Translations under genes and position numbers: made by a program | The notes under the pieces: generated by a model | What the model saw: only the letters and a program-made list of their open reading frames with translations | Databases searched by the model: none | Told to the model about the DNA's origin: nothing | Virus record (IMG/VR): IMGVR_UViG_3300037467_000966 | Strand: one strand, 5' to 3' | From: a virus | Taxonomy: Duplodnaviria > Heunggongvirae > Uroviricota > Caudoviricetes | DNA length: 64,000 nucleotides | Shown: piece after piece, positions 4,638 through 46,516 of the stretch | Layout of the letters: every line of letters starts with the position of its first letter | How positions within the stretch are numbered: position 1 is the stretch's first letter

Positions 4638-5425
4638 AAGATGTTTTCCCCTTTTTGATGTGTTTATTTATCACTATCTTTGCCTCCTTTTGTTTAACAA
4701 ATACAATGGGACTTCAGCTCAACTGAATACCTGCCACTCAGTTATTTCACGTATATACTCGTACTCGGTCTTCACTACTGAGGGAATGCGCCACCACTCG
4801 CCGTGGGATTACACGTCTTACATATACTTCGTCTACTAGCCACTGACTTTCATAGGGAATTTTAGGGGCGGACAGTGCCGTGACCCTTGGCTCTTCTATT
4901 GCTTGGGCGTCCCTTGCATGACATGAATTCGGTTTATCTAGCAGTACGAATTTTTTCGTGGCTGGCAACTAAGCCTCCATTAGCCGAAGCTAAAGCTAGG
5001 TACAGTCTAGAATGCCGCCTAGACCGCAGCCAGTAGTTCCCTACTTATCTTCCCCTTACTAGAGATTCCTAATATCTTATGTCAGAACACAGTATGAATT
5101 CTCATACCGTCAGCTCACATAAGATTAACTTAGATTTCGGATAGGCTGTCAGGTCACGCTCCTTCATTTATCTGCTGGTGCATCCCCCAGCTAGCACCTA
5201 CGCATCCTAATCTCTAAGTAAGACAAGAAGACTTCAGATATGTCGTCACGGATATTCTTCGGCCCACCGTGCTATCCCAGCCGATATATATGGGATTACT
5301 AAAAGTTCTTGGCATCTTCTTTATCTGGTGACGGGGTTAGTTTTTGGAAGGAGAATAAACCGTCATATCTCCTGGCTCTGGTCAACATTTTTTATTTAAG
5401 CGGGAAAGCTGCCAAACAAAACCCT

Positions 5426-5512
5426 TGGAGCTGCCAGGAGGATTCGAACCTCCGACCTCTCCCCGTCGATGTGGACTCTTGGGGGAGTATTCTACCGCTG
5501 AACTACAGCAGC
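5426..5512 (-). tRNA. tRNA-like gene with encoded CCA. Canonical acceptor, D and T arms, but a 19-nt anticodon loop (12-nt insertion). Anticodon possibly AAG if the insertion lies after position 37.
   Basis: Minus-strand read GCUGCUG-UA-GUUCAGCGGUAGAAU-A-CUCCC[19 nt]GGGAG-AGGUC-GGAGGUUCGAAUCCUCC-UGGCAGC-U-CCA. The 7-bp acceptor stem pairs (two GU), and the T loop UUCGAAU is canonical. Confidence 0.5.
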
Positions 5513-5619: not shown

Positions 5620-5823
5620 TTATACATTTGCATCATTCTCCTTTTTCTTTTTCTTTAATTTATGCAAACCGAAATCAACAAGCGCATGTAAACCAAACCC
5701 AAGAAGGAATAGTTTAATAAGCCCGAAGAATCCAGTGAAATTAAATCCAAGATTAATTAAAGCTGTTGCAATAATAACGTACAGGATAGCGGCAATAATG
5801 AATCGTAAGTTACGATGACTCAT
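5620..5823 (-). CDS. Small hydrophobic membrane protein
   Basis: 67-aa ORF with two predicted TM stretches and a lysine-rich C-terminus. Abuts the vWA gene stop. Confidence 0.4.
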   Translation of the reverse strand: MSHRNLRFIIAAILYVIIATALINLGFNFTGFFGLIKLFLLGFGLHALVDFGLHKLKKKKKENDANV

Positions 5824-6614
5824 TACAATACAACACCTTTTGATTTCGCTTGACGTAACCAGTTAGGGAATTCTTTTAATACGGCTTCGTAAAGCTTCTC
5901 GTCAGCAATTCCATTCACATCTGAAATCTTTGTGAAGTCAGCGTTGTCTAAGTAGCGGCCTGTTAAATCATCCAATGATTGCAGATAGTTGAATGACTCA
6001 TTGCCGATACCGATGAACTGCCAGAAGATACCCTGCTTAGCAGCCTCAGTAATCACACGAGTTGTTTCAGAACGGTCACCATTGTCACCATCTGTCATGA
6101 AGAATACCAGTGTAGGAATCTTAACAGGCTTTACATCTTCAGGCATAACCGTCTTGCTTACTACTTCTGTTACGGTCTTTGATTTTGCACCGAACAGTTT
6201 GCCAAGGAATCCAGCTTCCACTTCTTTTGTTACTTCTTCTTGAACAACTTGTGGAGTGATAGCTGTGCCGTACTTAGCAATAATTTGTTTCATTACTGGA
6301 GCATACTCCGTACCACCAGATGCACGAAGACCCTTCTTCTTTAAGAAGTCTTTGTGATTGCTTTCATTGGCAGAACCAATATATTCATAGCCATGATTGA
6401 AAGCATAGATGTCGATTGATTTGTTTGGGTCCATGTTCATTCCAACGCCGATGAAGCGGTCAGCTTGTTCTTGAACATTCCCTTTGTCAATTTCCCATCC
6501 CATAGAACCTGATTTGTCGATAGCGAATACGATGTTCGCTTGAAGACCAGCAAGCCCTAACTTCTCTAATACGATTGCAGATTTCTTTTTTAAATCAATT
6601 ACGTTACCCAACAT
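5823..6614 (-). CDS. von Willebrand factor A (vWA) domain protein, TerY-like
   Basis: MIDAS motif VFAIDKSGSMG followed by ...FFMTDGDNGD. Sits next to the TerC/TerD genes. Confidence 0.8.
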   Translation of the reverse strand: MLGNVIDLKKKSAIVLEKLGLAGLQANIVFAIDKSGSMGWEIDKGNVQEQADRFIGVGMNMDPNKSIDIYAFNHGYEYIGSANESNHKDFLKKKGLRASGGTEYAPVMKQIIAKYGTAITPQVVQEEVTKEVEAGFLGKLFGAKSKTVTEVVSKTVMPEDVKPVKIPTLVFFMTDGDNGDRSETTRVITEAAKQGIFWQFIGIGNESFNYLQSLDDLTGRYLDNADFTKISDVNGIADEKLYEAVLKEFPNWLRQAKSKGVVL

Positions 6615-6619
6615 GTTTC

Positions 6620-6660
6620 TCCCCCTAGAAATTAGTAAAGCGGCCCCGAAAGACCGCTTA
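6620..6660 (-). terminator. Intrinsic terminator-like hairpin after terC
   Basis: aagcgg-ccccgaaaga-ccgctt stem-loop, then an A/U-rich tail on the transcribed strand. Confidence 0.45.
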
Positions 6661-6730
6661 TTTAAAGAATCGTCTGATAGCTCTGATGGCTCTGTCTATA
6701 GATGTAATCATGCTGATAAGTTGTCTGATA

Positions 6731-7483
6731 TTACGCGGCAACATTTTTCTTGCTGCCCTTGTTCTTTAATGCGTGAACCACAAATGTTAATCCAAATGTG
6801 ATGATTAAAACAATAAAGAATAACCAGTCTGGAGCTTCATATGAAGTCCAGTGTTGACCGATAAGGTTACCTACTTCATGCAGTTCAGTTACAAACATCT
6901 TAACCGCAATCAAGAAGATAAGAACGAATGCTGTTCCTTCCATCTCTGGAACCTTATTGATAAGCTTAATGAATACACCTGCAACAGAACGCATCATTAA
7001 GATACCAAGGATACCACCAGCGATTAATACATAGAAGCTTTGAGATAAAGCAAATGCTGCTAAGATACTATCAACAGAGAAAGCAATGTCCATTAACTCA
7101 ACAGAGATAATTGTTGTAACGAATGGCGACAAGCCAAGCTTACCAAAGAATGCTTGAACCTTGTTTTCTTCGAACTCGTCATTGATACCATCGCCGTCTT
7201 CGTCTTTCTTCTTAGAGGCAAAATGCTTAATAGATAAATAAGCAAGGTATAAAGCACCAACTGTTTTGATGGCCCATAAGTATTCCCAATCAGCGATATA
7301 AGCCCAGCCGAAGATACATACAGCACGGAAGATAATCGCGCCCCACATACCATAGAAAAGTGCTTTCTTTTGCTGACTAAGTGGTAATCTCTTTGTCATT
7401 ACTGCAAGTACTAATGCATTGTCTGCGCTTAGCAAACCTTCAAGTACGACTAACGTAACTACTAGTCCAATGATTGATAACAA
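6731..7483 (-). CDS. terC: TerC-family integral membrane protein
   Basis: Multi-TM 250-aa ORF with the TerC signature LLSADNALVLAV near the N-terminus. Confidence 0.85.
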   Translation of the reverse strand: MLSIIGLVVTLVVLEGLLSADNALVLAVMTKRLPLSQQKKALFYGMWGAIIFRAVCIFGWAYIADWEYLWAIKTVGALYLAYLSIKHFASKKKDEDGDGINDEFEENKVQAFFGKLGLSPFVTTIISVELMDIAFSVDSILAAFALSQSFYVLIAGGILGILMMRSVAGVFIKLINKVPEMEGTAFVLIFLIAVKMFVTELHEVGNLIGQHWTSYEAPDWLFFIVLIITFGLTFVVHALKNKGSKKNVAA

Positions 7484-7634
7484 CTATTCCAACTCCCTAA
7501 TTAATATTTGTTTTTGATTTTGTCCACTACATGTTTTGCTGCTGCCTTCACATTATCGTGAAAGAAGTGACCTACCACATAACCAACCACGAATGTAAGA
7601 ATCGTCCCTGACATCTTCATTCCCCCTGTAGATA

Positions 7635-7672
7635 TAATATCTATATATAAGAAAGGGCCGAAGCCCTCTCGT
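7635..7672 (-). terminator. Intrinsic terminator after terD (RNA hairpin GAGAGGGC-UUCG-GCCCUUUC plus U/A-rich tail)
   Basis: gaaagggccgaagccctctc inverted repeat immediately downstream of the 7676 stop. Confidence 0.55.
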
Positions 7673-7675
7673 ATT

Positions 7676-8257
7676 TTAAGCGACTGTTAATCCATAATCT
7701 TTAACGAAACCAGCTAGGCCATTTGCATAACCAGCACCGATAGCGTTGAATTTCCATTCGCCGTTTACTTTATAAATCTCACAAACTGCTACTCCAGTTT
7801 CAATAGAGAAGTCCTCACCTAAATCAAAGCGAAGGATTTCTTCATTTGTGATTTGGTCATACACGCGGACATAAGCATTGGATACTTGTCCGAAGTTTTG
7901 AGAACGACGCTCTGCTTCATAGATAGTTACTACGAAAGCAAGCTTCTGAATGTAAGCAGGCATTACTGAAAGGTCAACTTTGATTGTCTCATCATCGCCC
8001 TCTGTGCCACCAGTCAACTCATCCCCTGAGTGCTCAACTGCACCAGAAGCATGACGTAGATTATTATAGAATATAAAGTCGCCTTCGTCACGAGTTTTAT
8101 TTAATTCATTAACCATGAATACTGAAACATCCAGGTCAAAGTCTGCTCCGCCAGCATACTTATTTGTATCCCAGCCTAATGCTACATTAATCTTTGAAAG
8201 GTTTGTTCCTTTCGTTAAATCAACACGTTGCCCTTTTTTTACCAACTCAACTGCCAT
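7676..8257 (-). CDS. terD: TerD-domain stress/tellurite-resistance family protein
   Basis: GWDTN...GADFDLDVSVF...GD..TGGTEGDDETIKVDL...FVVTIY.A...QNFGQVSNAYVRV..GEWKF.A.GAGYA.GLA is a near-textbook TerD. Confidence 0.9.
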   Translation of the reverse strand: MAVELVKKGQRVDLTKGTNLSKINVALGWDTNKYAGGADFDLDVSVFMVNELNKTRDEGDFIFYNNLRHASGAVEHSGDELTGGTEGDDETIKVDLSVMPAYIQKLAFVVTIYEAERRSQNFGQVSNAYVRVYDQITNEEILRFDLGEDFSIETGVAVCEIYKVNGEWKFNAIGAGYANGLAGFVKDYGLTVA

Positions 8258-8388
8258 GATTCATTTCCCCTTTTCATAAAAGTCTTTTACTTCCATCCAT
8301 GCTTTTTTATAACCATAGTCATGACCTAAACAAAAGCCACCAACGACTGCGATGGTGACTATGCCTAGCATCTTTAACACTTCAATCA

Positions 8389-9006
8389 TTAGTTGATTCC
8401 AGCTACATAAGCCTCAAGACCGCCGCCGTAACCAGCGCCAACAGCTTTGAATTTCCAATCTCCACTGTGCTCATAAAGCTCACCAATAACCACGCAAGTT
8501 TCAATTGAGAAGTCCTCTGATAAGTCATAACGAGCTACCACTTCACCAGTTCCATCATTGACTACTTGCACATACGCATTGTGTACTTGACCAAAGTTTT
8601 GGTTACGTGTTGCTGCATCATAGATAGTGATAGCAAAACGAACAAACTTTGCAGCGATAGGAAGCTTCGCTAAATCAATTGTTACTGTTTCATCAGGGCC
8701 AGTACCTTCACCAGTACGGTTATCCCCAGAGGATACCACGCTGCCCGTAGGGTCACTTGGATTATTGAAGAATACGAATGAGTTCTCAGATATGATTTTG
8801 CCTCCATCACCTAAGATTGCAGCAGATGCATCTAAGTCAAATGCAGAACCGTCATACTGATTAGCATCCCAACCTAATTCCACTTTGAATTTTGTTACTC
8901 CTGGTACTGATTTTGTAAGATTGATGTTACCGCCTTTTTGCAAATTAATCATTTTGTTATTCCTCCCAATTTTTCTTTTGATTTTTTCTTGAATATATTT
9001 TATCAC
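8389..9006 (-). CDS. terD: TerD-domain protein (second paralogue)
   Basis: LGWDANQYDGSAFDLDASAAIL...SGDNRTGEGTGPDETVTIDL...QNFGQVHNAYVQV...GDWKFKAVGAGYGGGL has very high similarity to canonical TerD. Confidence 0.9.
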   Translation of the reverse strand: MIKYIQEKIKRKIGRNNKMINLQKGGNINLTKSVPGVTKFKVELGWDANQYDGSAFDLDASAAILGDGGKIISENSFVFFNNPSDPTGSVVSSGDNRTGEGTGPDETVTIDLAKLPIAAKFVRFAITIYDAATRNQNFGQVHNAYVQVVNDGTGEVVARYDLSEDFSIETCVVIGELYEHSGDWKFKAVGAGYGGGLEAYVAGIN

Positions 9007-9546: not shown

Positions 9547-9785
9547 TCATCTGGCCTCCATCCTAAAACATGTACAACAAAATATCCAACAGGGAAAATT
9601 AAAACAAGAAAGCCAATAACGCAACTTGTTATAATGGGCTGTTGTTTAAAACCTGCAATAACAAGCATGACAACTGCAATTGCTAGAAGCAGGATTAATA
9701 GAATTTGTATACCTACCATGAAGTAAGTGCCCCAGCTTATCCAGGGAAACTTCTTTTTCTTTTCTTTGTTAAGATTGACTGCCAT
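9540..9785 (-). CDS. Small membrane protein (two TM helices)
   Basis: 81-aa ORF with hydrophobic core ...GTYFMVGIQILLILLLAIAVVMLVIAGF. Confidence 0.45.
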   Translation of the reverse strand: MAVNLNKEKKKKFPWISWGTYFMVGIQILLILLLAIAVVMLVIAGFKQQPIITSCVIGFLVLIFPVGYFVVHVLGWRPDEW

Positions 9786-9786
9786 A

Positions 9787-10047
9787 TCAATACTCCTTAC
9801 TTAGTAGCATTGCAGCGCCCTTATTGCTCTTTAAAGATTCGCTTAGGTACAATGGAGTAAACCCACGGTCAAAGGTTAGAATGCCTTCCCAACCTGCGTA
9901 CAAGCTGCCGTAGTTTTCTACAAGTCTAAAAGTTCCTTCGCATTTGTTTGGGGCCATACTAATTAACTCAAGCTTATGAAAGCTATACTCATATACCCAG
10001 CCAACTTTAAAACGATTGCCTTGTGAGTCACGTCTTTCTGGTGGCAT
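9787..10047 (-). CDS. KEW-tail family small protein (C-terminus ...AAMLLSKEY)
   Basis: First member, in transcription-terminal position, of a tandem array of small proteins sharing the C-terminal LL(S/D)KEW peptide. Confidence 0.55.
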   Translation of the reverse strand: MPPERRDSQGNRFKVGWVYEYSFHKLELISMAPNKCEGTFRLVENYGSLYAGWEGILTFDRGFTPLYLSESLKSNKGAAMLLSKEY

Positions 10048-10048
10048 G

Positions 10049-10342
10049 TTACCACTCCTTACTTAATAAATTAACGGCTTCTTTATTTGATTCAATAGCA
10101 ATTTCAACGGCGTCTTCTGCTGTTATACCTAGTCCTACTCCATTGCCCATAGGAACATTCATCCTACGTACAAACTCGGAGTAGTTATAATCATCAGGTT
10201 CCAAGCGGAGAACCTTCTCATTATCTTCACTAGGAATTACCCGATAGCCACCATTAGATTTCTTTTCTACATCAAAGACTTAACCTATCATTTTTTTATA
10301 CCACTTGCTAGTGGAAGAAATACTTTTAATTCGTACTTTCAT
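10049..10342 (-). pseudogene. KEW-tail family member interrupted by an in-frame TAA after codon 20 (nonsense pseudogene, or shorter product from an internal start)
   Basis: Minus-strand frame reads MKVRIKSISSTSKWYKKMIG*VFDVEKK...NKEAVNLLSKEW. The stop follows an A7 tract and the same frame continues to the family C-terminus. Confidence 0.5.
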
Positions 10343-10343
10343 C

Positions 10344-10652
10344 TTACCACTCCTTTGAAAGCAATCGCTTTGCTTCCATATTGTTTTTCGCTTGAGGAAA
10401 CATCAGGTCTTCTTCAGGATAAGAGTTCCTATAAGTTAGCGCATCCTGCGGCCAATCTTCTGGAGCCACTACGCGAATATCATACCACCATCCTGTCTTG
10501 AAATCACCGTCGTCCCAGAACACATCTAAGATTCTAGCTTGTGGTGTCTGCCAACTGCCGAGTTGCTTTATGTAATAAGCCTTTGGCTGTAGCGTAATGA
10601 TATCGCCTACCTTAAAGTTAGCCGTCTCCTTGCTCGGTCTATTTCTTGCCAT
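10344..10652 (-). CDS. KEW-tail family small protein (...EAKRLLSKEW)
   Basis: 102-aa ORF with the C-terminal family motif, tightly packed against its neighbours. Confidence 0.6.
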   Translation of the reverse strand: MARNRPSKETANFKVGDIITLQPKAYYIKQLGSWQTPQARILDVFWDDGDFKTGWWYDIRVVAPEDWPQDALTYRNSYPEEDLMFPQAKNNMEAKRLLSKEW

Positions 10653-10653
10653 C

Positions 10654-10959
10654 TCACCACTCCTTGCTTAAACGTTTTTTCGCTTCTTGATTTGTTACTG
10701 GAGGAGCTTCCGCCAACATCAAATCTATATCGCGATAATATAATTCATCTTGGGTTTCATCTTCCCAGAGGACAGAATATTGAAAGTGCTTAAAGTGTTT
10801 AGAATACTTTCCTTCTATCTCTCCTTGGTGACATCTACCCACAATGGTTCCGACAACAGCATATTCTTCTCCATTGTCACCTTCTCTTTTGTTTTGTTCG
10901 TACCACTCTGAATCATCTGTAAGTAGTACTTTCTCTCCTAATTCATACATACCTACCAC
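10654..10959 (-). CDS. KEW-tail family small protein (...EAKKRLSKEW)
   Basis: 101-aa ORF. The true start is probably ATG at 10948-10950 (MYELGEK...). Confidence 0.6.
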   Translation of the reverse strand: MVGMYELGEKVLLTDDSEWYEQNKREGDNGEEYAVVGTIVGRCHQGEIEGKYSKHFKHFQYSVLWEDETQDELYYRDIDLMLAEAPPVTNQEAKKRLSKEW

Positions 10960-11171
10960 TCCTTGTCCAATAGGGTAGAAGCCCCTTTGTTATTACTAGA
11001 TACAGGAGCTAAACATGATAGAAAAGAATGACATTCTACGCCATTGTCCCATTTAATACGAGGACTTTCTTTTCCTTCTCCTTCTATAATGGTTCCTGTC
11101 ATACCAACTGGAACATTATATCCTGGGTGTACATACTTAATTCGTTTGACTCTTTGACCTTTGTAATACAT
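10953..11171 (-). CDS. KEW-tail family small protein (...ASTLLDKEW)
   Basis: Start adjusted to the internal ATG (MYYKGQRVKR...) just after the upstream gene's stop. The longer track ORF overlaps its neighbour out of frame. Confidence 0.5.
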   Translation of the reverse strand: MYYKGQRVKRIKYVHPGYNVPVGMTGTIIEGEGKESPRIKWDNGVECHSFLSCLAPVSSNNKGASTLLDKEW

Positions 11172-11172
11172 T

Positions 11173-11445
11173 CTACCACTCCTTGTCCAGCAGCCTAGCA
11201 GCTTCCTTATTACTAGAAGAAGGAATAGAAATAATCCTATCTCCATATGGGTCTAGCCTGTGAGACACTACGCTGCCAAGCCAGCCGCATCCTTTTGGCT
11301 TTCTTACAATCGTTGCCATGTTAGCATGGTCATCCCAGGCCAAATCCCTTGGCAACTCAAAATCCATTCCAATTGCATCCATAGAAATAGATTTCCTTTT
11401 ATTCTGCCCTATGCGGATAATCGTTCCTTTTGGAAGCTTCTTCAT
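11173..11445 (-). CDS. KEW-tail family small protein (...EAARLLDKEW)
   Basis: 90-aa ORF, first gene of the tandem array. Confidence 0.6.
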   Translation of the reverse strand: MKKLPKGTIIRIGQNKRKSISMDAIGMDFELPRDLAWDDHANMATIVRKPKGCGWLGSVVSHRLDPYGDRIISIPSSSNKEAARLLDKEW

Positions 11446-12044
11446 ACCATCACTCCTTGAATAAAAAAAATTCTTTACCCAATAGAAAGTACAAACAAGA
11501 TAGGATTCGAATCAGCGTGTGCATGCCCCAGGTTAGCAGCTAAAGGAAACCATAGGTTCCTCCACTCATCTAATACCTATCATTGATAAGAGAACGTCAG
11601 ACCAGGCTGGTAATTTCTAGGCATGCATTTAACCCCACCTGTACCATGAGGTCACCTACAACGTCTTGGAATTCTCTTATGCGTACTCTCTATTCAGTAA
11701 AGAATTTAAAAAGCTCCTTGGGCAGGAAGAAAATAAGATACAATCATAGGCTTCAGTGCTTACCATCCGACAGTGGGACTCGAACCCACACGCCTCTCGG
11801 CGGACAGAGCTATCTCCGTCTGCGTCTGCCAATTTCGCCATGCCCGATGGGGCTTACTTGGCACCTATGATATGGAGAAGAACTTCGGATTGGTGTCTAT
11901 TGCAGACCCCAGAAGGAATCGAACCAGCTACTTTCCGCTTATAGGCGGCTGTTTTACCCAATAAACTATGCGGGCCTCCACTACACCGTAGTTCCTGGCA
12001 TTCTTCTCATTCTTATTCTCTACCTGCCCAAAGAGCAAGTAACC

Positions 12045-12645: not shown

Positions 12646-12990
12646 CTATTTTACATTCCATTCATATTTTTTCAAGAGGGATTTAGCCTCCGTATTCTTT
12701 TCAATGAATGGTTCGGCTTCATTCTTGCTAATCCACATCCACGGCCCTCTCTCATAACGCTCAGGCAAGTCGGAACTACGGTATGTTCGAATAATCTTAC
12801 CTACTCTTACATCGCCATCACTAATAAAAGTGCCAGTAGTTTCAACTCCTGTATGAACCAAGTACCAGCCGTACTTTGGGTCGCTGTCGTGTTCGTGTTC
12901 TTCAATGTAGACTTCTCGAATAGGATTCTGATTAAGGCTATCTCGAATATCACTGCTCCAATGATTCTGAACCTTTACGCGAACCTTCAT
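12646..12990 (-). CDS. KEW-tail-related small protein (...EAKSLLKKYEWNVK)
   Basis: 114-aa ORF. C-terminus is a variant of the family motif with a 3-aa extension. Confidence 0.5.
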   Translation of the reverse strand: MKVRVKVQNHWSSDIRDSLNQNPIREVYIEEHEHDSDPKYGWYLVHTGVETTGTFISDGDVRVGKIIRTYRSSDLPERYERGPWMWISKNEAEPFIEKNTEAKSLLKKYEWNVK

Positions 12991-13019: not shown

Positions 13020-13937
13020 TTACGCAGTAGCCTCCGTCTTTTTAGCAGGAACTTTCTTCGCTGGAGTCTTCTTTACTTCCACTTCAGCCTTTGGTTCTTC
13101 AACTGGTTCTGGTTTTAAGAAACGTGCCTTATTCAGCTTGGTATCAAAGCTCATCGTTTGTGCATTGAAGGTAACGGCATGAGTCTTTAATCCTTCACCC
13201 TGTCTTGCGTCAGCTGATAACACTGTATTGGCAAAACCTAATGCTAAGTTCGCTGCCGTTTGGTTCGTAAAGATGTTCTGAGGATTGCTCACGGCCCGCT
13301 CCGCACAACTCATTTCATGTGGAAGTTTATCTGTTGCCTCTAGAATCTCTGGATACATATCCGCTACGCTTGGAAGATTGAATAAGTGAGGAACCTTTTC
13401 GCCCTTCACAAAGTCACGTCCAGCATTGTAACCAACAACAACTTGACCAGCCCACTCTTCATTTCCCATGTCCAGCCAGAACATACCTTTTGTTTCCTTG
13501 AACACTTCATTCACAATCGCACGAGTCTTATTGTTATCCACCGCACCGACTACGAAAGGAACCAAGTTATGCCGATTAACAATTTGCTTTAACATCTTTG
13601 GCCCATCCAGATATTCTCCAATGATGGTTACCTCAACACCGAACGCACCGCCATAACGCATGCCCATGATTTCAGCTTTGTTATGACCAACATCTCTTGG
13701 CAAGAAGTTCTGACGTGTTAAGTTCTTATCCTCAACGCTGTCTGCATCAATGATAGTTACTGCATGCAATGCCTTGTTCTCCAGCTTAAGCATTCTGTTT
13801 TGAAGACTGATTTGACGAATTAATTGTGGAATAAAATAACCGCCGTTGCCGCCTGCTCCAATAATAATCCAATGCTTTGCCTTCTTTGCTTGTACATCCA
13901 AAGTATAAGTTGGTTCTAATGCCATTGATAAATCCAT
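13020..13937 (-). CDS. E1-like ubiquitin-activating enzyme (ThiF/MoeB fold)
   Basis: Rossmann motif WIIIGAGGNGGY, then IIDADSVEDKNLTRQNF...DVGHNKAEI (the E1/ThiF ATP-binding and arginine-finger region). K/P/E-rich C-terminal tail. Confidence 0.8.
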   Translation of the reverse strand: MDLSMALEPTYTLDVQAKKAKHWIIIGAGGNGGYFIPQLIRQISLQNRMLKLENKALHAVTIIDADSVEDKNLTRQNFLPRDVGHNKAEIMGMRYGGAFGVEVTIIGEYLDGPKMLKQIVNRHNLVPFVVGAVDNNKTRAIVNEVFKETKGMFWLDMGNEEWAGQVVVGYNAGRDFVKGEKVPHLFNLPSVADMYPEILEATDKLPHEMSCAERAVSNPQNIFTNQTAANLALGFANTVLSADARQGEGLKTHAVTFNAQTMSFDTKLNKARFLKPEPVEEPKAEVEVKKTPAKKVPAKKTEATA

Positions 13938-14007
13938 GATTAATTCCTCCTAGTTTTTGTTTTGTTCCTTAATTGAAGTAAGAGCAGCCAAAGACTGCCC
14001 TCTCTTC

Positions 14008-15294
14008 TTAATCTAAGAACCAATCATTACGTTCGCCATGAAGATGACCATAACCGCTGTTCTCAGTCATTGTATCACTCACAACGTAATCGTACCCAAG
14101 GTCAATCAGCTCTTGAACGATTTCCTTAACGGTCTCTTCCACTTCGCCAATTGATTTAGTGTCGTCTCCCAGATTTTTTTCCAGAAAAATTTCGACTTCT
14201 GTTCTCGGCTCGCTGCTTGCGCTTTTGCTCGCGCTGCTCCCGCTTAGTGATTCTTTTTTTTTAGAATCTAAGCCTTGTGCTTTCGCATTAGCTGCCACAA
14301 TATCATCCTTGTTCGCTCGTCCCCCTGGTGAGCCATGGTAGCCATAGCCGCCAGATGTCCCATACCCATAGTAGTCCCACTCGTCCCCCCACTTGTCGTA
14401 ACTGGGAGATGTCCCTGTCCCCGACTTTTTTGCGTGATAGTTGTAACCTCCGTAAGAACGAGAGTGTTGTCCCATCCAATCGTCTGGAGCTTCAACACGA
14501 GGCCATGGTCCTTTAAATGATTTGTGTTCTACTTTTTCTTCGACTACTGGTTCGAATCCTTCTACTGGTACAGTAGTTGTTACCAGTGTCTTGATTTCTA
14601 CTTGAGGAATATCAAACAGCAAAGCTGGGTCAATGTTTACGCGTGTGCCGCCACATACCCAACGGAATAAGAAGTTTGGTTCATCCTTGTCGATGTTGCC
14701 CCATACTCCGTAGAACTGAGTCATGTTTTCATTGGCATCATCTGTACCAGACCAGAACGCTCCCATCGTATGGTGGCTGTGCGTCTCACATAATGGTGTG
14801 CAATTCTCACGAAGATAATTCACCATCCCATCCTGATGGAACTCAGATAATGAACCAGAGTTCTTTTGCTGTGGACAATACACAATCAACTGTCCATCTT
14901 CAATAAGGCCCTTGATGTCTGTGCCATCTGTATACTTTGGTGGCAGCTCCACATTATCATGATTCCAGAAGAACAATGCGCTGGCTTCTGTCTTATCCTT
15001 CGTATGAACATCACGATAGAAAGTTAATACCATGATTAGATACTTCAAAGGAATCTTTGGAATCAATAACTCTGGACCTTCTTCCATTGATTCAAGACCT
15101 GGAATTGCTTTGTCCGCTGGGATATCTGAAAGCTTTACTTTGAATAAAGCAACAGGAGTCTTCACCACTCGGAAGACCCCGTTACGTGCAACAACGATAT
15201 TGGTTGGTTTATCATAAGCCTCAGCTGGTTGTGGACCGAAGTGCTTACCTACTAATTGACCTGCTAACATTGCGGTTAAATCTAAATTTGCCAT
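14008..15294 (-). CDS. JAB/MPN (JAMM) metallopeptidase with long low-complexity G/Y/S-rich C-terminal region
   Basis: Perfect JAMM motif E...HSHHTMGAFWSGTD (H-x-H-x7-S-x2-D). Confidence 0.75.
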   Translation of the reverse strand: MANLDLTAMLAGQLVGKHFGPQPAEAYDKPTNIVVARNGVFRVVKTPVALFKVKLSDIPADKAIPGLESMEEGPELLIPKIPLKYLIMVLTFYRDVHTKDKTEASALFFWNHDNVELPPKYTDGTDIKGLIEDGQLIVYCPQQKNSGSLSEFHQDGMVNYLRENCTPLCETHSHHTMGAFWSGTDDANENMTQFYGVWGNIDKDEPNFLFRWVCGGTRVNIDPALLFDIPQVEIKTLVTTTVPVEGFEPVVEEKVEHKSFKGPWPRVEAPDDWMGQHSRSYGGYNYHAKKSGTGTSPSYDKWGDEWDYYGYGTSGGYGYHGSPGGRANKDDIVAANAKAQGLDSKKKESLSGSSASKSASSEPRTEVEIFLEKNLGDDTKSIGEVEETVKEIVQELIDLGYDYVVSDTMTENSGYGHLHGERNDWFLD

Positions 15295-15336
15295 TTTAAA
15301 ATTCCTCCAATTGTTTTAGTTTTTTGTTTGATTATC

Positions 15337-16095
15337 TTAACGTAAATACTGTTCACCATGACGACGAATGGCATCGCCTAAACGAATTGCTGGCTGTAAA
15401 ATATCATTCTTGAATCGTGGTGTTTCCCCTTTTGCGTCTGCTTCTTTACAGATTCTGTCCATGTATTGCAGTAAGTGAATCGTTCTCTCACGTACAATAC
15501 GTTGACCGTTTACCGTATCTTCAAAGCGCTCAAACTTGCCGCCATCTAAATCATTATTAAATGGATTAGCGAAGAAGCGGTCTGGAACAGTCATGATGGA
15601 TTTAGAACCACCAAGCGCTGGGTAATCAGACTCAGAACCCCAGCATAGGTAACTATGATTAGAGTTCGCAAATGGGAATGTATACAATTGGTCATTCAAG
15701 CTAAGCACAGGTTGCTTAATCGCATATGCTACTCCGTGGCGATACCGACGCGTATCATTTGCTGGGTTGTGCAAAACATGAATAATCCAAACTGCTGCTG
15801 GTGCTACAATCTGAAACTCAGGGAACGCATTCTCCCCTGTCTCGCTTCTCATATCAAACTTGGCAATGTGCCTTGTCTCTGGAGTTGCGATAACATACTG
15901 TTCCATGTTATTAACCTTTGTATATTTTTGTACGCCAAAACCATAAGGAAGAAGCGGCGATTCAATCCGCTCACCTCTGGTTAGGACTTCTTGAATTGCT
16001 TGAACATTTGTATTTTTGATTGAGCGCTCTCCATTACGGATAACTTCAATCTGAATACTATCTGGATTTAAGTGAATACTTGTGCGGTTTTCCAT
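15337..16095 (-). CDS. Putative E2-like (UBC-fold) conjugating enzyme
   Basis: FPFANSNHSYLCWGSESDYPAL aligns with the UbcH5 active-site region [23 protein letters not shown] (NSN-x-S-x2-C followed by S-x-W/Y-x-PAL). Adjacent to JAB and E1. Confidence 0.45.
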   Translation of the reverse strand: MENRTSIHLNPDSIQIEVIRNGERSIKNTNVQAIQEVLTRGERIESPLLPYGFGVQKYTKVNNMEQYVIATPETRHIAKFDMRSETGENAFPEFQIVAPAAVWIIHVLHNPANDTRRYRHGVAYAIKQPVLSLNDQLYTFPFANSNHSYLCWGSESDYPALGGSKSIMTVPDRFFANPFNNDLDGGKFERFEDTVNGQRIVRERTIHLLQYMDRICKEADAKGETPRFKNDILQPAIRLGDAIRRHGEQYLR

Positions 16096-16107
16096 TTCAA
16101 TTCCTCC

Positions 16108-17811
16108 TTAGAATGGTAAATCTTCTTCGTAAGTGTACTCTTCAATTACATCAAATGGCAGATGGTAATCATGGATTGCAACCCTTGCTCCATTGCTTAT
16201 ACCAGCGTATACGCATGCAGCATCAAGCTCACGGAAACGTCTTACATCCCCGCCTTCACGAATAACTACATAGCGCTCTAGTGGAATCGCTCTGCCGTTC
16301 ACATAGATGCCAGGTGCTGTTGCCCGCGGTGGTTCTGCAGTTGGTTCAGCTTGTACAACTTCTTCCACCTGAGCATTTAATCGAGCAATCAACTCATCAA
16401 ATGGCGTCTGCGTTGGAACTTCTTCCACCACTGGTTGTGCTGGCTGAGCTTGCAACTGTTGACGAAGTTGTTCAGCTAAAGCATGACGGCGTTCAGCATT
16501 GGCTCTCGCTTCTGCTTCTATACGCTGACGTTCTTGCTCTTCCAACTCTTGGAGTCGCGCTTCTTCCTCTTGGCGTCTTATGCGCTCAGCTTCCTGACGA
16601 GCACGTTCTTGTTCCATCTCACGACGGATTTGCTCTTCACGCTGACGACGTTCTTCTTCTAAACGAAGTCTTTCTGCTTCTTGACGAGCACGCTCTTCTG
16701 CCTCTTCACGCTCCTTCTGAATACGCTCCTGCTCTAACCAAGGCTCAATCTCAGCCTCCGCCTCACGACGGATACGCTGAGTAACCTCTAGCAACTCAGT
16801 ATGTCCTTCTGGCAATAAGTGCTTCCAGAATTCCATATTAAATTCAGCATAGATGTAATCTTGGATAACGATTGGAGCAACACCATTACGGCTACGGTCA
16901 CCAGTCATATCAATGCTGGTAACTTTACCCCAACCTTGCAGCTCATAACCTTCTGGCTCTTGGTAACCATCGAATGGTGGCAATGCAATCCATCCTTCTT
17001 CTTCAGAACCTGATGGAGCCATAACCTTTACCTTGAGTCCTGTAGGCACCATTTCCGCCGCTGTAGGAGCGACAGCATATTCAGGAGCCTTACCATTCTC
17101 TCTTGCCCATTCAAGGAACTTGTGAGCAAATAAGCGGTCTGTTGCATCAGCTGATTCTTGAAGCTGAACCGCTGGCTTGAATAACTTCTCCATCACCCTG
17201 CGGCTATAATCTCGAAGCTCAGTGCGGATACGCTCTAATCGTTCTTGCTCACGGCGCTGAATCTCTGCTTCCATTAACCTTGTAACTTCACCATGGATTG
17301 CAGCTAGCGCAGAATCCTTACTGTACTCAGCATCAATCCAGTTAACAAAATCAACTAGGCCAGACTGAATGAATTGATAGATGCGATTGGTCTTGAACGG
17401 AATGTACAAGAATGTATTCCCGTTTCTTTCTTCGCGGCGAACCACATAACCAGATTGAAAAGAATTACGATTGTCTCTCATTCTCCTATAAAGCTGATTG
17501 TGGTTCTGCTCAAACCAAGACTTCCATTCAGGTTCACTATTATAGATTTCTCTTATCTTGTTAGCTTTCCTGTGGATGTGACTATCAAGACGTAGAGAAT
17601 AACTATGTTGGTTCTGTCTAATGCGACAGCCAGGGAACTTCTTCTTTAGATAAGCGAACACTAAATCTTTCACTATCTCTTCTTCCTGTGCTCCTGTTTG
17701 TGGAAGCGGCGGAAACTCTTCAATGTATTGCTTGTTGGCAAGTAGCCTAGAACTCATTACAAAGTTTAACTTGCTGACTAATGCGGTTGCATTAACTGTC
17801 ATGTCCCTCAC
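16108..17811 (-). CDS. Large hypothetical protein with long E/R/Q-rich coiled-coil segment
   Basis: 567-aa ORF inside the Ubl-E2-JAB-E1 operon. Candidate adaptor, E3 or target. Confidence 0.6.
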   Translation of the reverse strand: MRDMTVNATALVSKLNFVMSSRLLANKQYIEEFPPLPQTGAQEEEIVKDLVFAYLKKKFPGCRIRQNQHSYSLRLDSHIHRKANKIREIYNSEPEWKSWFEQNHNQLYRRMRDNRNSFQSGYVVRREERNGNTFLYIPFKTNRIYQFIQSGLVDFVNWIDAEYSKDSALAAIHGEVTRLMEAEIQRREQERLERIRTELRDYSRRVMEKLFKPAVQLQESADATDRLFAHKFLEWARENGKAPEYAVAPTAAEMVPTGLKVKVMAPSGSEEEGWIALPPFDGYQEPEGYELQGWGKVTSIDMTGDRSRNGVAPIVIQDYIYAEFNMEFWKHLLPEGHTELLEVTQRIRREAEAEIEPWLEQERIQKEREEAEERARQEAERLRLEEERRQREEQIRREMEQERARQEAERIRRQEEEARLQELEEQERQRIEAEARANAERRHALAEQLRQQLQAQPAQPVVEEVPTQTPFDELIARLNAQVEEVVQAEPTAEPPRATAPGIYVNGRAIPLERYVVIREGGDVRRFRELDAACVYAGISNGARVAIHDYHLPFDVIEEYTYEEDLPF

Positions 17812-17816
17812 CTCTC

Positions 17817-18368
17817 TTAAATAAAGTCAATAGATTCAACTGCTACTGTTCTTGCACGAGTTATTTGATTCACAAAGCCAACGACTTGTCTTTCTACTTC
17901 TGGCAAACGACGCTGTATCTGATGCTTAAAATCATTAAGTTGACTATCATTGTAACGACTAAAGTCCTGAACGGTTTGTGCATTGTTTATCGTTTCAATG
18001 ATTTGTCTTAGGTCAGATGTCAGCAAAAATCTTTCCCGTTCACCCTCAAGGTCATTACAAATCCTTGCGATGTCTGGTAAGAATCCATTTGCTTCCCAGT
18101 GGTCAGCAGGCTCTTCATTCCTTACTACTTCTACTTCCACTGCTGGTCTTGCCTGTACTGCTTCTTCTGGATTCACTTGTTCATTCCTCCTTAGTGATTC
18201 ACATCTTTGACAAACTCGATAATGTGAATAAGAATCTCTATCAACCGTTTGGTTGCTGAAGCCTTGACCGCAATACATTCTGTCGCCGCTTCTTCTAATA
18301 TGAAGAACTCGCGTTGTATTACTTGGAACATACTCAATCGTTGCTACCATCTCTACACTCCCTTTCAT
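17817..18368 (-). CDS. Hypothetical protein with N-terminal Cys cluster (C-x19-CxxC), possible zinc-binding module
   Basis: 183-aa ORF directly downstream of the hexa-repeat gene. Confidence 0.55.
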   Translation of the reverse strand: MKGSVEMVATIEYVPSNTTRVLHIRRSGDRMYCGQGFSNQTVDRDSYSHYRVCQRCESLRRNEQVNPEEAVQARPAVEVEVVRNEEPADHWEANGFLPDIARICNDLEGERERFLLTSDLRQIIETINNAQTVQDFSRYNDSQLNDFKHQIQRRLPEVERQVVGFVNQITRARTVAVESIDFI

Positions 18369-18428
18369 AAAAAAATAGAGGGCCGTGCATAAGCAAGCAG
18401 CCCTCTACCTTTTGTCATGGTATCCAGA

Positions 18429-19508
18429 TTAAGCTAATTTAATCACTAGCTTTGTGAAACGGGCACCTTTCGTACCAGCTTTCACGGTGAAACGAATCTC
18501 GTCGCCAACCACTTCGAATGTTGCATTCTTCAGTTCAGGGAAGATTTCGCTCATGGATGCCTGGATTTCTTCAGGCTTTAAGCTGTCGTCTTCCACGTTA
18601 AGGCGGTTAGAGCCGTATACAACGACTCTCGCACCTTTCGTACCAGCCTTAACAGTGAATCGGATTTCATCCCCAACAACTTCAAACGTTGCGTTTTTCA
18701 ACTCAGGAAAGATTTCAGACATGGAAGCCTGAATCTCTTCTGGTTTTAAGGAATCATCCTCAACATTTAAACGATTAGAACCATAAACAACTACGCGTGC
18801 CATACCTTTCGTCCCCGCTTTCACTGTGAATCGAATTTCATTTCCAACTACCTCGTAGGTAGCATTCTTCAACTCTGGAAAAATCTCAGACATAGATGCC
18901 TGGATTTCTGCTGGAGTCAAAGATGAGTCCTCTACATTCAGACGGTTTGAACCATACACAACAACTCTTGTCATACCTTTTGTACCTGCCTTTACTGTGA
19001 ATCGGATTTCGTTTCCTACTACTTCATACGTAGCATTTTTAAGCTCTGGGAAAATCTCGCTCATAGAAGCTTGAATCTCCGCTGGTGTTAAAGAAGAATC
19101 TTCAACATTCAAACGATTGGAGCCGTAAACAACCACGCGGGTCTGGCCTGAACCAGAACCCTTTGTGCCTGCTTTGACAGTGAAACGAATCTCATTGCCT
19201 ACGACTTCGAAAGTAGCGTTCTTAAGCTCAGGGAAAATCTCAGACATAGAAGCTTTGATTTCCTCTGGGCTTAAAGAATCATCCTCAACGTTTAAGCGGT
19301 TGGAACCGTATACCACAACGCGGGTAGCACCCTTCGTCCCAGCTTTAACTGTGAAGCGGATTTCGTTTCCAACGACTTCGTAAGTTGCATTCTTTAACTC
19401 AGGAAAAATTTCAGACATTGACGCTTGAATTTCTGCAGGTGTTAAAGAAGAATCCTCCACGTTAAGACGATTTGAACCATAAACCACTACTCTTGTTTGA
19501 TTAGACAT
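18429..19508 (-). CDS. Tandem hexa-repeat small-domain protein (6 x ~57 aa, each unit ending ...KAGTKG), candidate polyubiquitin-like precursor
   Basis: Six near-identical units (T)RVVVYGSNRLNVED(S/D)SL(T/K)P(A/E)EI(Q/K)ASMSEIFPELKNAT(Y/F)EVVG(N/D)EIRFTVKAGTKG. First gene of the operon that ends with E2-like, JAB and E1. Confidence 0.6.
   Translation of the reverse strand: MSNQTRVVVYGSNRLNVEDSSLTPAEIQASMSEIFPELKNATYEVVGNEIRFTVKAGTKGATRVVVYGSNRLNVEDDSLSPEEIKASMSEIFPELKNATFEVVGNEIRFTVKAGTKGSGSGQTRVVVYGSNRLNVEDSSLTPAEIQASMSEIFPELKNATYEVVGNEIRFTVKAGTKGMTRVVVYGSNRLNVEDSSLTPAEIQASMSEIFPELKNATYEVVGNEIRFTVKAGTKGMARVVVYGSNRLNVEDDSLKPEEIQASMSEIFPELKNATFEVVGDEIRFTVKAGTKGARVVVYGSNRLNVEDDSLKPEEIQASMSEIFPELKNATFEVVGDEIRFTVKAGTKGARFTKLVIKLA
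18462..19499 (-). repeat. Six tandem ~171-180 bp near-identical coding repeats
   Basis: DNA-level repetition is visible (e.g. gtgaaacgaatctcgtc/gccaac...cttcagttcaggg recurs with period ~171-180 bp). Confidence 0.85.
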
Positions 19509-27091: not shown

Positions 27092-27512
27092 TATTTGTTT
27101 CCTCCCGTTTCAATTTAATATAACTGCTAGCTTGCTTTAATGAATAATAAGCTGACTCTAATCCTGCTCTGTCGTCCAGCAGGATGTTGTAATAAATCTT
27201 GCCGCCTTTAAACGGAAGACCTGGCATGTTTTCATTGACTGCGTCATAAGGAATATCCCATCTATCAAGATAATTCTTAATGAAATCATGTCGTTCTGGT
27301 TCACTTGTACTAAAGACAATCAAGTAACAGCCAAGCTTCTTGCACTCCCGAAGAAGTTCAATGACTTGGTCGTACTTGTTGCCTTCCTTGTGGTAGTCAT
27401 GAACCGTTCCATCAAAGTCATAAGCAACGATTAACTTCCCGTGCTGCTCCCACTCCTTAATTAAACGAAGGGTTGCAGCACCTGGCAATAGGTACGGGTC
27501 AGTCAAGAACAA
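27084..27512 (-). CDS. HAD-like phosphatase-fold protein (DxDGT motif)
   Basis: IVAYDFDGTVHDY motif I. 142 aa. Confidence 0.45.
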   Translation of the reverse strand: MFLTDPYLLPGAATLRLIKEWEQHGKLIVAYDFDGTVHDYHKEGNKYDQVIELLRECKKLGCYLIVFSTSEPERHDFIKNYLDRWDIPYDAVNENMPGLPFKGGKIYYNILLDDRAGLESAYYSLKQASSYIKLKREETNND

Positions 27513-33840: not shown

Positions 33841-34098
33841 CTAGCGAATATCATCTTTTGCTAATAGCACTTTAGCATCTTTGTTATTACCAAGATTCAT
33901 ACTGAATTGATAAACCTCACTGTCTTCTGGATGCTTTCCAAGAAAGACTACAGGCTGACCAATCGCGTTGCCTAATCGTGTTGCAACTTCCTTGCTCCAC
34001 CTCTCACCTCCACCAGTATAGAGACTGACAATTCCTTCTTTTCGCAATATTTCCTCAGCTTGCTTCCATTGTGACGGTAAATTTTTTCTATCTAGCAA
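33841..34098 (-). CDS. Hypothetical protein
   Basis: 85-aa ORF. Confidence 0.5.
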   Translation of the reverse strand: MLDRKNLPSQWKQAEEILRKEGIVSLYTGGGERWSKEVATRLGNAIGQPVVFLGKHPEDSEVYQFSMNLGNNKDAKVLLAKDDIR

Positions 34099-35395: not shown

Positions 35396-35899
35396 TCATT
35401 GCGATGCAGAAACCAAAGATGTCGAAATCCAATTGTCTGACCCCCAGTATCCCGTAGGAATTTCTTTTCCTGCTGCTATCTTTGCCATGTCCTCCCTTCT
35501 CAACGCTTTTAGTTTGGATAACCGTTCTCTTAAACGCATTCCACGAGGATAGAATTCACTAAAGTCTTCCACATTATAGCCAATCTGCATGATTCCCTTA
35601 CCTATGATTAGTGGTGCTTTAATCAAACGTGGATTGCATTTGACATACAAATAAAGCTTAGATAATGGAAGTGACTCTACATCAATGCCGCGTGCCAACA
35701 ATTCCTTATAGACTTTGCCATTCTTAGCAATGATGTCGTCTGTTCCGTTCTCTGTGTAGCTTAGGATATCTTTCAGTTCCTCAAATGTTAACGGCTCTGT
35801 CCCCATATTGCGAACCTCAAATTCTTGCCCAACTGCCTGTAAATGAGCAACAGCTTTTCTAGATGACGGATTCGATGACAGTATAAAAACTCGAATCAT
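35396..35899 (-). CDS. Hypothetical protein
   Basis: 167-aa ORF. Confidence 0.6.
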   Translation of the reverse strand: MIRVFILSSNPSSRKAVAHLQAVGQEFEVRNMGTEPLTFEELKDILSYTENGTDDIIAKNGKVYKELLARGIDVESLPLSKLYLYVKCNPRLIKAPLIIGKGIMQIGYNVEDFSEFYPRGMRLRERLSKLKALRREDMAKIAAGKEIPTGYWGSDNWISTSLVSASQ

Positions 35900-36437: not shown

Positions 36438-36749
36438 TCACCACTCCTTATCTAACATTCGGGCTGCGGCCTTATTGCTGGTCTCACCCTTCTCAACTGG
36501 GACAGCGTGCCCTCGCTCAATCCAACAGCTAACATAGCTCTGACCATAACCTGTTCCGCCATTAGTATACTTTCTTCCTCTCATCTCTGAAAACTGCTGG
36601 TCATTATGCGGACTAGTTGCTAAATAGTAAGCGCTAAAGAACTGGTCTCCTGGGTCACATACTTCAAAGACTCTCCCTATGGCAGACCTCTTTTTATCAT
36701 ACCAGTGGCCGCTAAATCCATCTTCTATTATTTGAACGAACATTCTCAT
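36438..36749 (-). CDS. KEW-tail family small protein (...AAARMLDKEW), dispersed copy
   Basis: C-terminal family motif. Confidence 0.6.
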   Translation of the reverse strand: MRMFVQIIEDGFSGHWYDKKRSAIGRVFEVCDPGDQFFSAYYLATSPHNDQQFSEMRGRKYTNGGTGYGQSYVSCWIERGHAVPVEKGETSNKAAARMLDKEW

Positions 36750-45863: not shown

Positions 45864-46124
45864 TTAAAATTCCCCCTGTAATAATCTTTTTGCTTCCCTA
45901 TTAGTTCGAGCAACCAACGATTTAAATCGTGATTCATCAATGCCAATTACATCTCCAGGGTCATGCCCTTTCGATACAGTAAACTCAGTAATTCTAACTG
46001 ACCATACATCGCTGTGTCGATGCTCTGTAACAATACCTCTGAAGATATAACTGTCATCATTTCTTGAGCGATGCTGGCTGTAAAAATTATATTCACGACC
46101 AATTTCTATCTCCACGACTACCAC
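45864..46124 (-). CDS. KEW-tail-related small protein (variant ...EAKRLLQGEF)
   Basis: 86-aa ORF. Confidence 0.5.
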   Translation of the reverse strand: MVVVEIEIGREYNFYSQHRSRNDDSYIFRGIVTEHRHSDVWSVRITEFTVSKGHDPGDVIGIDESRFKSLVARTNREAKRLLQGEF

Positions 46125-46516
46125 TCCTTCGACAGTAAACTTTTTGCTTGAGTATTCTTCTCGAAGACTGTCACTTCCTTCACATGGTCATGCGGAATAA
46201 ACGTGTACTTCCTCACATCTAATTCATCATGAGGCTTAAGAATACCTTCTACTTCAGGATGCATATAGTGAATCTTGTCATCACGCTCAATAGGAGAACC
46301 ATCGGTTTCATAGCCTTCCGTAGGGCGAATAATATACCATACAGAACCATTGCCATGATTTCCTTGCACCTTGACCAATACTTCTCGAATCTCTCCTTCT
46401 GGACCGCGTAATTCACTCGTTAATTTTACATGCATAAAACCACTCCTTCCGTCGTGCAACGGCGAATATCCCGCTCGGTTAAAAATATCCAAGTATAAAA
46501 AAGAGGACGCCGCCAT
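46118..46516 (-). CDS. KEW-tail family small protein (...QAKSLLSKEW)
   Basis: 132-aa ORF. Confidence 0.6.
   Translation of the reverse strand: MAASSFLYLDIFNRAGYSPLHDGRSGFMHVKLTSELRGPEGEIREVLVKVQGNHGNGSVWYIIRPTEGYETDGSPIERDDKIHYMHPEVEGILKPHDELDVRKYTFIPHDHVKEVTVFEKNTQAKSLLSKEW

Follow-up and report, generated by a model that had tools for sequence, protein, structure and literature searches.

Small genes with a common C-terminal tail

The window, i.e. the whole stretch of 64,000 nucleotides of a large, uncultivated Caudoviricetes phage of the Bacillus type that was analyzed (IMG/VR record IMGVR_UViG_3300037467_000966), contains a family of small genes whose products have dissimilar bodies and a nearly identical C-terminal peptide, termed the tail. 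Six of the genes (m6 to m1) form a tandem array, the others are dispersed (Table 1). A preliminary description made from the sequence alone had listed ten such open reading frames (ORFs), and all of them were found on the minus strand, their C-termini being identical to those quoted there. Its family size of at least ten was borne out but turned out to be an undercount, as a profile of the tail added an eleventh gene (m11). For this profile, 16 tails were taken from the window and one relative, and the comparison covered all 2,841 six-frame ORFs that the window and related loci contain. Members were recovered at E = 3e-8 to 2e-5, each 0-6 residues from the C-terminus, while no significant internal match was obtained among these ORFs. 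The motif is confined to C-termini. With eleven genes in 64 kb, the family makes up about one tenth of the approximately 115 plausible genes of the window.

The consensus of the tail is (S/T/N)-N-x-x-A-x-x-L-L-x-K-E-(W/Y/F)-stop, with the core numbered N1-x-x-A4-x-x-L7-L8-x-K10-E11-W12; SNKEAKRLLSKEW is a tail peptide of this type. A shared C-terminal peptide was thus correctly recognized before, but conservation extends beyond the 8-10 residues given at that time, comprising 12-13 residues from an invariant asparagine. Residues N1, A4 and L8 are essentially invariant (position 1 is asparagine in 19 of 19 tails) and L7, K10 and E11 nearly so, while positions 2, 3, 5, 6 and 9 are free to vary. 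The proteins are small, as had been stated, but corrected starts (m5 at 11171, m4 at 10950, a GTG at 46115 for m9) give 72-114 amino acids (aa) instead of 70-130. The start of m10 is probably an internal ATG, judged by its 105-aa orthologue P0012, which has the tail SNTEAKNLLSKEW.

L002, a 25-kb contig of the Joint Genome Institute (JGI), is syntenic with the window, encodes a ThiF protein that is 90% identical and possesses an array in which eight or nine genes bear the tail. More distant relatives are the Bacillus jumbo phages vB_BceM_WH1 (hereafter WH1), Edson and vB_BauM_KLEB27-3 (KLEB27-3), to whose ThiF proteins that of the window is 50-52% identical. The m3 orthologue P0006 of L002 shows 49% overall identity and has kept the tail, while the m7 orthologue of this contig (6810-7157) ends with KKYEWSVE. 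Within m2, an in-frame TAA was detected: the window reads MIG*VFDV (asterisk, stop) versus GMVFDV in the intact L002 orthologue (9780-10088). The gene may have become a pseudogene recently, or the stop may be due to an error of assembly or serve for read-through.

Table 1. Members of the tail family and other features of the window. For m1 to m10, the first position given is that at which the stop codon begins.
Feature	Position	Strand	C-terminal tail	Description
m6	11173..11445	-	SNKEAARLLDKEW	First array gene, 90 aa; tail-profile E = 7e-8
m5	10953..11171	-	NNKGASTLLDKEW	72 aa from the coupled ATG; product is P0009, the same call from the gene caller
m4	10654..10950	-	TNQEAKKRLSKEW	98 aa; SH3-like 'A' body class
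m3	10344..10652	-	NNMEAKRLLSKEW	102 aa
m2	10049..10342	-	SNKEAVNLLSKEW	Second array gene in coordinate order, 97 codons; in-frame TAA at 10280-10282
m1	9787..10047	-	SNKGAAMLLSKEY	Last family gene of the array, 86 aa
m7	12646..12990	-	KNTEAKSLLKKYEWNVK	114 aa; directly downstream of the ThiF gene
m11	33841..34098	-	NNKDAKVLLAKDDIR	New member, about 85 aa, TTG start; P0014 in the protein search
m8	36438..36749	-	SNKAAARMLDKEW	103 aa; downstream of the AAA ATPase gene
m10	46118..46516	-	KNTQAKSLLSKEW	Called with 132 aa, but an internal ATG (about 46435) probably gives 105 aa
m9	45864..46115	-	TNREAKRLLQGEF	83 aa, GTG start; P0013
ThiF/E1-like	13020-13937	-		PRTRC_ThiF E = 8e-37, below cut-off
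JAB/PRTRC_A-like protein	14008-15294	-
359-aa protein	18429-19508	-		Odd, diffuse matches to Prok_Ub/PRTRC_C
PRTRC-like cassette	13020-19508	-		Inside the phage
TerF (von Willebrand factor A domain), TerC, TerD	5823-9006	-		Tellurite-resistance type
NAMPT/NAPRTase-family enzyme and PRPP-synthetase-like protein	25562-28377	-		Adjoining genes
tRNA-like gene	5426-5512	-		Anticodon loop of 6 nucleotides
tRNA-like gene	11764-11848	-		Anticodon loop of 8 nucleotides
tRNA-like gene	11902-11976	-		Anticodon loop of 6 nucleotides
Spx/ArsC-like ORF	35396-35899	-		Assigned by eye
Segment of about 0.8 kb	4640-5420			No convincing coding-strand ORF

The tail end as a Shine-Dalgarno site

The array was previously thought to be packed with stop/start overlaps, implying coupled translation. 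Coupling is supported by the present analysis, and the Shine-Dalgarno (SD) sequence lies inside the tail, but the genes do not overlap; they are 1-2 nucleotides (nt) apart. Array members end with AAG GAG TGG and the stop codon, followed after 1-2 nt by the ATG or GTG of the next gene. In all eight coupled tails with a K-E-aromatic ending, K-E is encoded by AAG-GAG, which places AAGGAG 7-8 nt upstream of the next start and thus provides each tail with an SD sequence coupling the translation of the following gene. With the codon usage of the window (AAG 0.555, GAG 0.34), the chance of eight such cases out of eight is about 1.6e-6. At other lysine and glutamate positions of the same tails, AAA and GAA are used normally. 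The array of L002 follows the same AAG-GAG rule, and the variant ending QGEF of m9 (CAG GGG GAA) is still a purine-rich SD sequence for the next gene. Upstream of its ATG at 11445, m6 has an SD sequence of its own (AAGGAG), m10 is coupled to m9, and m1 is followed by a coupled gene for a small membrane protein. Hence, going beyond the preliminary description, it is the ribosome-binding site that dictates which codons encode the terminal K-E.

The amino acids themselves are another matter. Four members (m7, m11 and the L002 genes starting at 6810 and 14841) have no tight downstream coupling or have the SD sequence after the stop codon, and these depart from the KEW-stop ending. For instance, m7 is not followed by a coupled start and uses non-SD codons (AAA ... 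GAA), and in m11 the SD sequence of the next gene (TAGGAGGTGAT) lies over and after the stop codon. Nevertheless, three of the four retain a Lys-acid-hydrophobic ending in non-SD codons. The tails of WH1 keep K-x-E even where the SD sequence is located after the stop codon. The retention of these residues in places where they do not serve as SD sequence argues that they are selected as such, the SD sequence determining no more than which codons are used and how far away the stop codon is. Scans of the array for promoters and terminators gave no more matches than shuffled sequence.

Conservation of the tail and divergence of the bodies

Synonymous changes are common at the conserved leucine, alanine and arginine codons, even between orthologous tails of the window and L002, and from N1 to S9 the synonymous sites are free, with six leucine and four alanine codons in use. 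Selection therefore acts on the peptide and not on the DNA. The tail is kept by purifying selection on the protein; neither an RNA motif nor a recent duplication accounts for it, and gene conversion as the source of the uniformity was rejected on account of the high synonymous divergence. The same 13-residue tail (NNKGASTLLDKEW) occurs with four synonymous differences on two non-orthologous bodies, in m5 (10953-10994) and in the L002 gene starting at 9780 (10047-10088), which suggests an old exchange of tails at gene boundaries or a strong convergence. On a helical wheel, N1, A4, L7, L8, E11 and W12 fall within an arc of 140 degrees (per-position entropy). The conservation moment was 0.21, a value that was reached by 343 of 10,000 permutations (3.4%).

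The bodies had been called largely unrelated, and at the sequence level this holds true. BLASTP among the tail-stripped window members yielded no significant pair (E >= 0.09, database of approximately 900 residues). Comparison of 13 tail-stripped subfamilies by hhalign linked only S2 with S8 (79%, 71 columns) and S3 with S4 (59%, 21 columns); according to the former, the m8 body is a distant relative of the m2 body. The identity between the window and L002 is 74-92% for core proteins and 29-67% for orthologous family bodies, although the key positions of the tail do not change; some members have no orthologue and the gene order of the array is not the same. The bodies diverge much faster than the neighboring core genes.

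Hints at the fold of the bodies came mainly from m4 and m5. Against Pfam, m5 gave sub-threshold matches to DUF4314 (E = 0.018, 15.4 bits, cut-off 27) and SH3_12 (E = 0.01, 16.2 bits, cut-off 26.2). No member reached the gathering threshold for DUF4314 or SH3-like families, and seven of the ten tested had no Pfam match at E <= 1. The best PHROG scores were marginal and concerned families without an assigned function, namely phrog_2431 for m5 (E = 4e-4) and phrog_9469 for m4 (E = 1e-3); for seven members there was no PHROG match at E <= 0.1. A search of the PDB sequences with the family profile gave no match at E <= 10, and the best one of m5 had E = 0.32. The m4 body class shows the pattern KVGDxV...Y.V.W, and a recurrent strand-like element Y-x-x-x-DL is situated just before the tail in members of the window, L002 and WH1. 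Two AlphaFold2 runs on alignments of two and three sequences yielded predicted local distance difference test (pLDDT) values of 41 and 35, too low to use because homologues were too few. The models, to which little weight is given, comprise an all-beta body and a helical tail.

Occurrence in databases and related phages

As had been suggested, profiles of the family were run against large databases. The strict tail is extremely rare; in a search of 1.84 billion representative proteins it was limited to this phage and its close metagenomic relatives. The tail-focused profile retrieved from this set the window's own proteins and one further orthologue (P0012), besides two low-complexity repeat proteins, which were false positives. 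When the family profile, m4 and the m2 orthologue were compared with 5.8 billion proteins, only the window's own proteins and the L002 orthologue P0006 were among the matches listed. A degenerate DNA pattern of the tail had eight matches in IMG/VR, all of them internal or out of context and thus attributable to chance. Megablast of the locus against deposited phage genomes revealed no nucleotide match, tblastn of m3, m7 and m10 against 50,697 phage records nothing meaningful, and in the literature searched on 0305phi8-36-like and jumbo phages such a tail family is not mentioned. Proteins of the window are present in JGI metagenomes, where the longest contig encoding them is listed with 526 kb.

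Relatives were found by a search with a ThiF alignment, after a single ThiF query had given none. The tail family was absent from most of these loci as determined by a regular expression on ORF ends and partly by eye; two of them (L011 and L013) end before the array region. In L002, the counterpart of the window segment at 4640-5420 consists of the small genes 14431-14838 and 14841-15131, the latter being a tail-family member with the ending NNMEAKHLLSLM; the window may have undergone a deletion here, or the segment may be a non-coding element.

Within 40 kb of the WH1 genome, 18 of the 71 annotated coding sequences end with N-x3-4-h-x2-h-[KRN]-x-[ED] plus 2-6 residues (h, hydrophobic), while internally the pattern matches twice in 9,641 residues. 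The WH1 genes are arranged in arrays (gp189-193, gp225-232, gp245-249 and gp252-253) and annotated as hypothetical. They resemble those of the window in their neighborhood (ThiF to Pol III alpha), in being small tandem genes, in their N(N)-x-x-x-h-x-x-h-K-x-E tails and in an SH3-like class that is homologous to m4. They differ in the type of tail, which is extended by 2-6 residues after the glutamate, and in the other body classes. L020, a jumbo-phage contig of IMG/VR, carries approximately nine small genes ending with NNxxhxxhLxDxEE. The acidic nature of the tails of WH1 and L020 type led to the rejection of an amphipathic helix that targets membranes. In KLEB27-3 the tail family was not found.

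Profiles of the window-type and WH1-type tails did not detect each other's tails. Compared without tails, the m4 subfamily matched WH1 gp190-193 strongly (hhalign 96.3%, E = 1.6e-9), and L020 members matched the m4-type SH3-like class (S4) and the WH1 'GIPP' class (WB) weakly (64% each). The tail type thus appears to track the genome and the body class to track orthology, which would imply some homogenizing constraint across the paralogues of one phage. The identical 13-residue tail of m5 and the non-orthologous L002 gene is a further indication of this kind.

Discussion

The existence of the tail family is a solid observation, for which several readings may be considered. The favored one, tentative and given slightly less than an even chance, is that variable heads are combined with a constant docking tail, by which the proteins bind one common partner or the tails of other members. 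They would constitute a multigene family that is specific to this lineage and consists of small, probably early and non-structural phage proteins. The heads of 60-100 aa are presumably mostly beta-rich, with at least one SH3-like class, and would evolve rapidly in several mutually unalignable classes, as expected of host-interaction genes. The tail may form an amphipathic helix that is short and capped, and by its conserved face (N, A, L, L, E, W) the members most likely dock to a phage or host hub protein or to the tails of fellow members. In this way, different heads could be brought to, or regulated by, one machine, while the last two codons (K-E) would work also at the RNA level as SD sequence for the next array gene. 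It is the helical conformation, the intermolecular docking and the common partner that are inferred here. For the functional tag on a diversifying body that the preliminary description had proposed, the support is indirect: purifying selection on the tail at the protein level, conserved residues on one helical face, bodies that change faster than their neighbors, and for each related phage its own type of tail on more than one body class.

Several points weigh against the docking tail. The partner is putative and the interaction hypothetical. An A/L/L/W face exposed on a 10-kDa protein would be unusual, burial within the protein being the more common case; the linker from the last predicted strand (often ...DL-x-x-h) to the tail has just 3-6 residues, and pLDDT values of 41 and 35 leave room for a helix packed on its own beta-body. 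The one-face test was only modestly significant (p approximately 0.03). Concerted evolution of the tails rests on one strong and two weak cross-genome links between bodies, and should the non-SH3 classes be lineage-specific in origin, their tails could be alike by descent. Moreover, KLEB27-3 lacks the family, which is therefore dispensable for this group of phages.

Comparable arrangements are known from other systems. Poxviruses possess many ankyrin/PRANC (F-box-like) paralogues in which variable target-binding bodies are combined with one conserved C-terminal element that docks on a single host machine. The likeness consists in a large DNA virus, variable bodies with a constant C-terminal element and fast changes of copy number and bodies. 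On the other hand, the tail of the window is only about 12 residues long, the bodies of 60-100 aa are not repeats, the host is a bacterium, there is no sequence relation and the partner is hypothetical. Extreme C-terminal peptides that tether unrelated proteins to a hub after a linker occur in the clamp-binding tails of T4 gp43, gp33 and gp55, in the ClpX-binding peptide of SspB and in the SSB tail. The family shares with them the mix of hydrophobic and charged residues and the aromatic or hydrophobic last residue, and its layout (body, linker of 3-6 residues, conserved tail with one-face conservation) would suit an SspB-like adaptor. However, the tail fits none of QL[SD]LF, PIP box, SspB LRVVK and SSB DDDIPF, and the known cases are few functionally distinct proteins and not a tandem expansion. 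As to the clamp motifs (QL[SD]LF or QLxLxL) and the PIP box (Qxx[LIM]xx[FY][FY]), the tail has Asn instead of Gln, Ala at position 4 and no aromatic pair. By analogy, it may work like other shared docking motifs, yet it conforms to none of their sequence definitions. Nor do the proteins look like precursors of ribosomally synthesized and post-translationally modified peptides with a follower peptide, since the bodies have 60-100 aa, are strand-rich in the low-confidence models and no corresponding enzyme was found among the neighbors. The bodies of m4 and m5 resemble, weakly, the beta-barrel families DUF4314 (PF14192) and PHROGs 2431, 3782 and 9469, but these sub-threshold matches span the barrel only and leave the tail unaligned, and most members have no match.

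The main alternative is that the proteins are ordinary diverged paralogues of one SH3/Sso7d/chromo-like beta-barrel fold, whose terminal helix packs on its own body as the slowest-evolving part without any role in partner binding. This is a serious possibility, albeit probably not the correct one. It agrees with the weak SH3-like matches of several bodies, with the Y-x-x-x-DL element, short linker and hydrophobic face, with the all-beta models plus terminal helix and with the traces of ancestry between S2 and S8 and between S3 and S4. Against it, profile-profile similarity is missing for most pairs of bodies, and the WH1 class with GIPP...PHW...GWR, m11 and the L002 gene at 14841 do not have an SH3-like appearance. 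A packed helix should also co-vary with its body, but the tail is uniform in each genome and switches its type between genomes. Furthermore, the invariant asparagine and the polar E11 are atypical of a protein core.

It is also conceivable that conservation acts at the nucleotide level, the 3' end being the initiation region of the next gene (A-rich enhancer and SD sequence) or a joint for cassette shuffling and the peptide a by-product. The constant AAG-GAG and SD-start spacing, the loss of the exact KEW ending where no coupled gene follows, the different array orders of the window and L002 and the occurrence of one tail on non-orthologous bodies would be in line with this. Nevertheless, it is highly improbable: synonymous sites from N1 to S9 vary freely, and GC-rich alanine codons are invariant as amino acid. 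Uncoupled members keep N-x-x-A-x-x-L-L and the Lys-acid-hydrophobic ending in non-SD codons, as WH1 keeps K-x-E, so that this explanation accounts for two codon positions and not for the whole motif. Hardly better is the prospect of a processing, turnover or modification signal that would time or mark the whole family, either as a degron of a host AAA+ protease or as an element recognized by the adjacent PRTRC-like ThiF(E1)/JAB cassette, with which the conserved lysine or the C-terminal carboxylate would react. In favor of the latter, a family member follows the ThiF gene directly in the window as well as in L002, and in WH1 and L012 one lies two genes downstream of it, with JAB and a PRTRC_C-like match nearby, and N, K and E are nearly invariant. 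However, the adjacency to ThiF is weak evidence because family genes make up 10-25% of the local genes, and KLEB27-3 carries the ThiF/PRTRC_A cassette without the family. The C-terminal residues of known E1 substrates are small (GG), while the tails end in W, Y or F and no member matches Prok_Ub or PRTRC_C. The SUMO-like consensus h-K-x-E fits the WH1 tails but not those of the window, in which K directly precedes E-W. An ssrA-like ClpXP degron (nonpolar LAA-type tripeptide) does not agree with the terminal K-E-W/Y/F, and the tail is not known to resemble any Bacillus ClpXP tag. An extended form of the docking tail is unlikely, though less so than the last two explanations. Here the tail would be a genome-specific plug that joins diversifying heads to one machine, e.g. 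a protease/unfoldase or the PRTRC-like E1/JAB system, tail and socket would co-evolve in each lineage while the same codons drive the coupling of the array, and the family would be a phage counterpart of F-box/PRANC adaptors.

The majority of jumbo-phage genes are small orphans without a route to function, whereas here at least one tenth of the genes of a region share a 12-residue handle. Once a protein binding the tail is known, it could provide a functional context for a whole set of 'dark matter' genes, both in this phage and in relatives that can be cultivated, such as WH1. If the docking tail had a host or phage hub as partner, it would be a clear case in prokaryotic viruses of an arms-race family with a constant docking motif and a variable specificity domain. 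The locus is, moreover, a clear example of dual coding, as the last residues of a conserved peptide are encoded by the only codons that also form the SD sequence of the next gene, which matters for motif discovery and for the reading of conserved C-termini in compact operons.

Genomic context

All genes of the window are located on one strand. Encoded are, inter alia, a DnaE-type Pol III alpha subunit, RNase H, a 5'-nucleotidase, a sigma factor and an AAA ATPase. The ter genes beside the array are conserved in L002. For genes neighboring the PRTRC-like cassette, the WH1 homologues are annotated as virion structural proteins. The NAMPT/NAPRTase-family enzyme and the adjoining phosphoribosyl pyrophosphate (PRPP) synthetase-like protein form a pair for the salvage of nicotinamide adenine dinucleotide (NAD), which also exists in KLEB27-3; such pairs are thought to be used by phages against NAD-depleting defenses. 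The ORF at 35396-35899 looks Spx/ArsC-like by eye but is without an obvious CxxC, and genes annotated as Spx regulators are present in the analyzed regions of WH1 and KLEB27-3. Finally, three tRNA-like genes were detected by ARAGORN, all with non-standard anticodon loops (Table 1). Two of these are matched by the tRNA model of Rfam; in the alignment of 11904-11975, the anticodon loop contains a gap.

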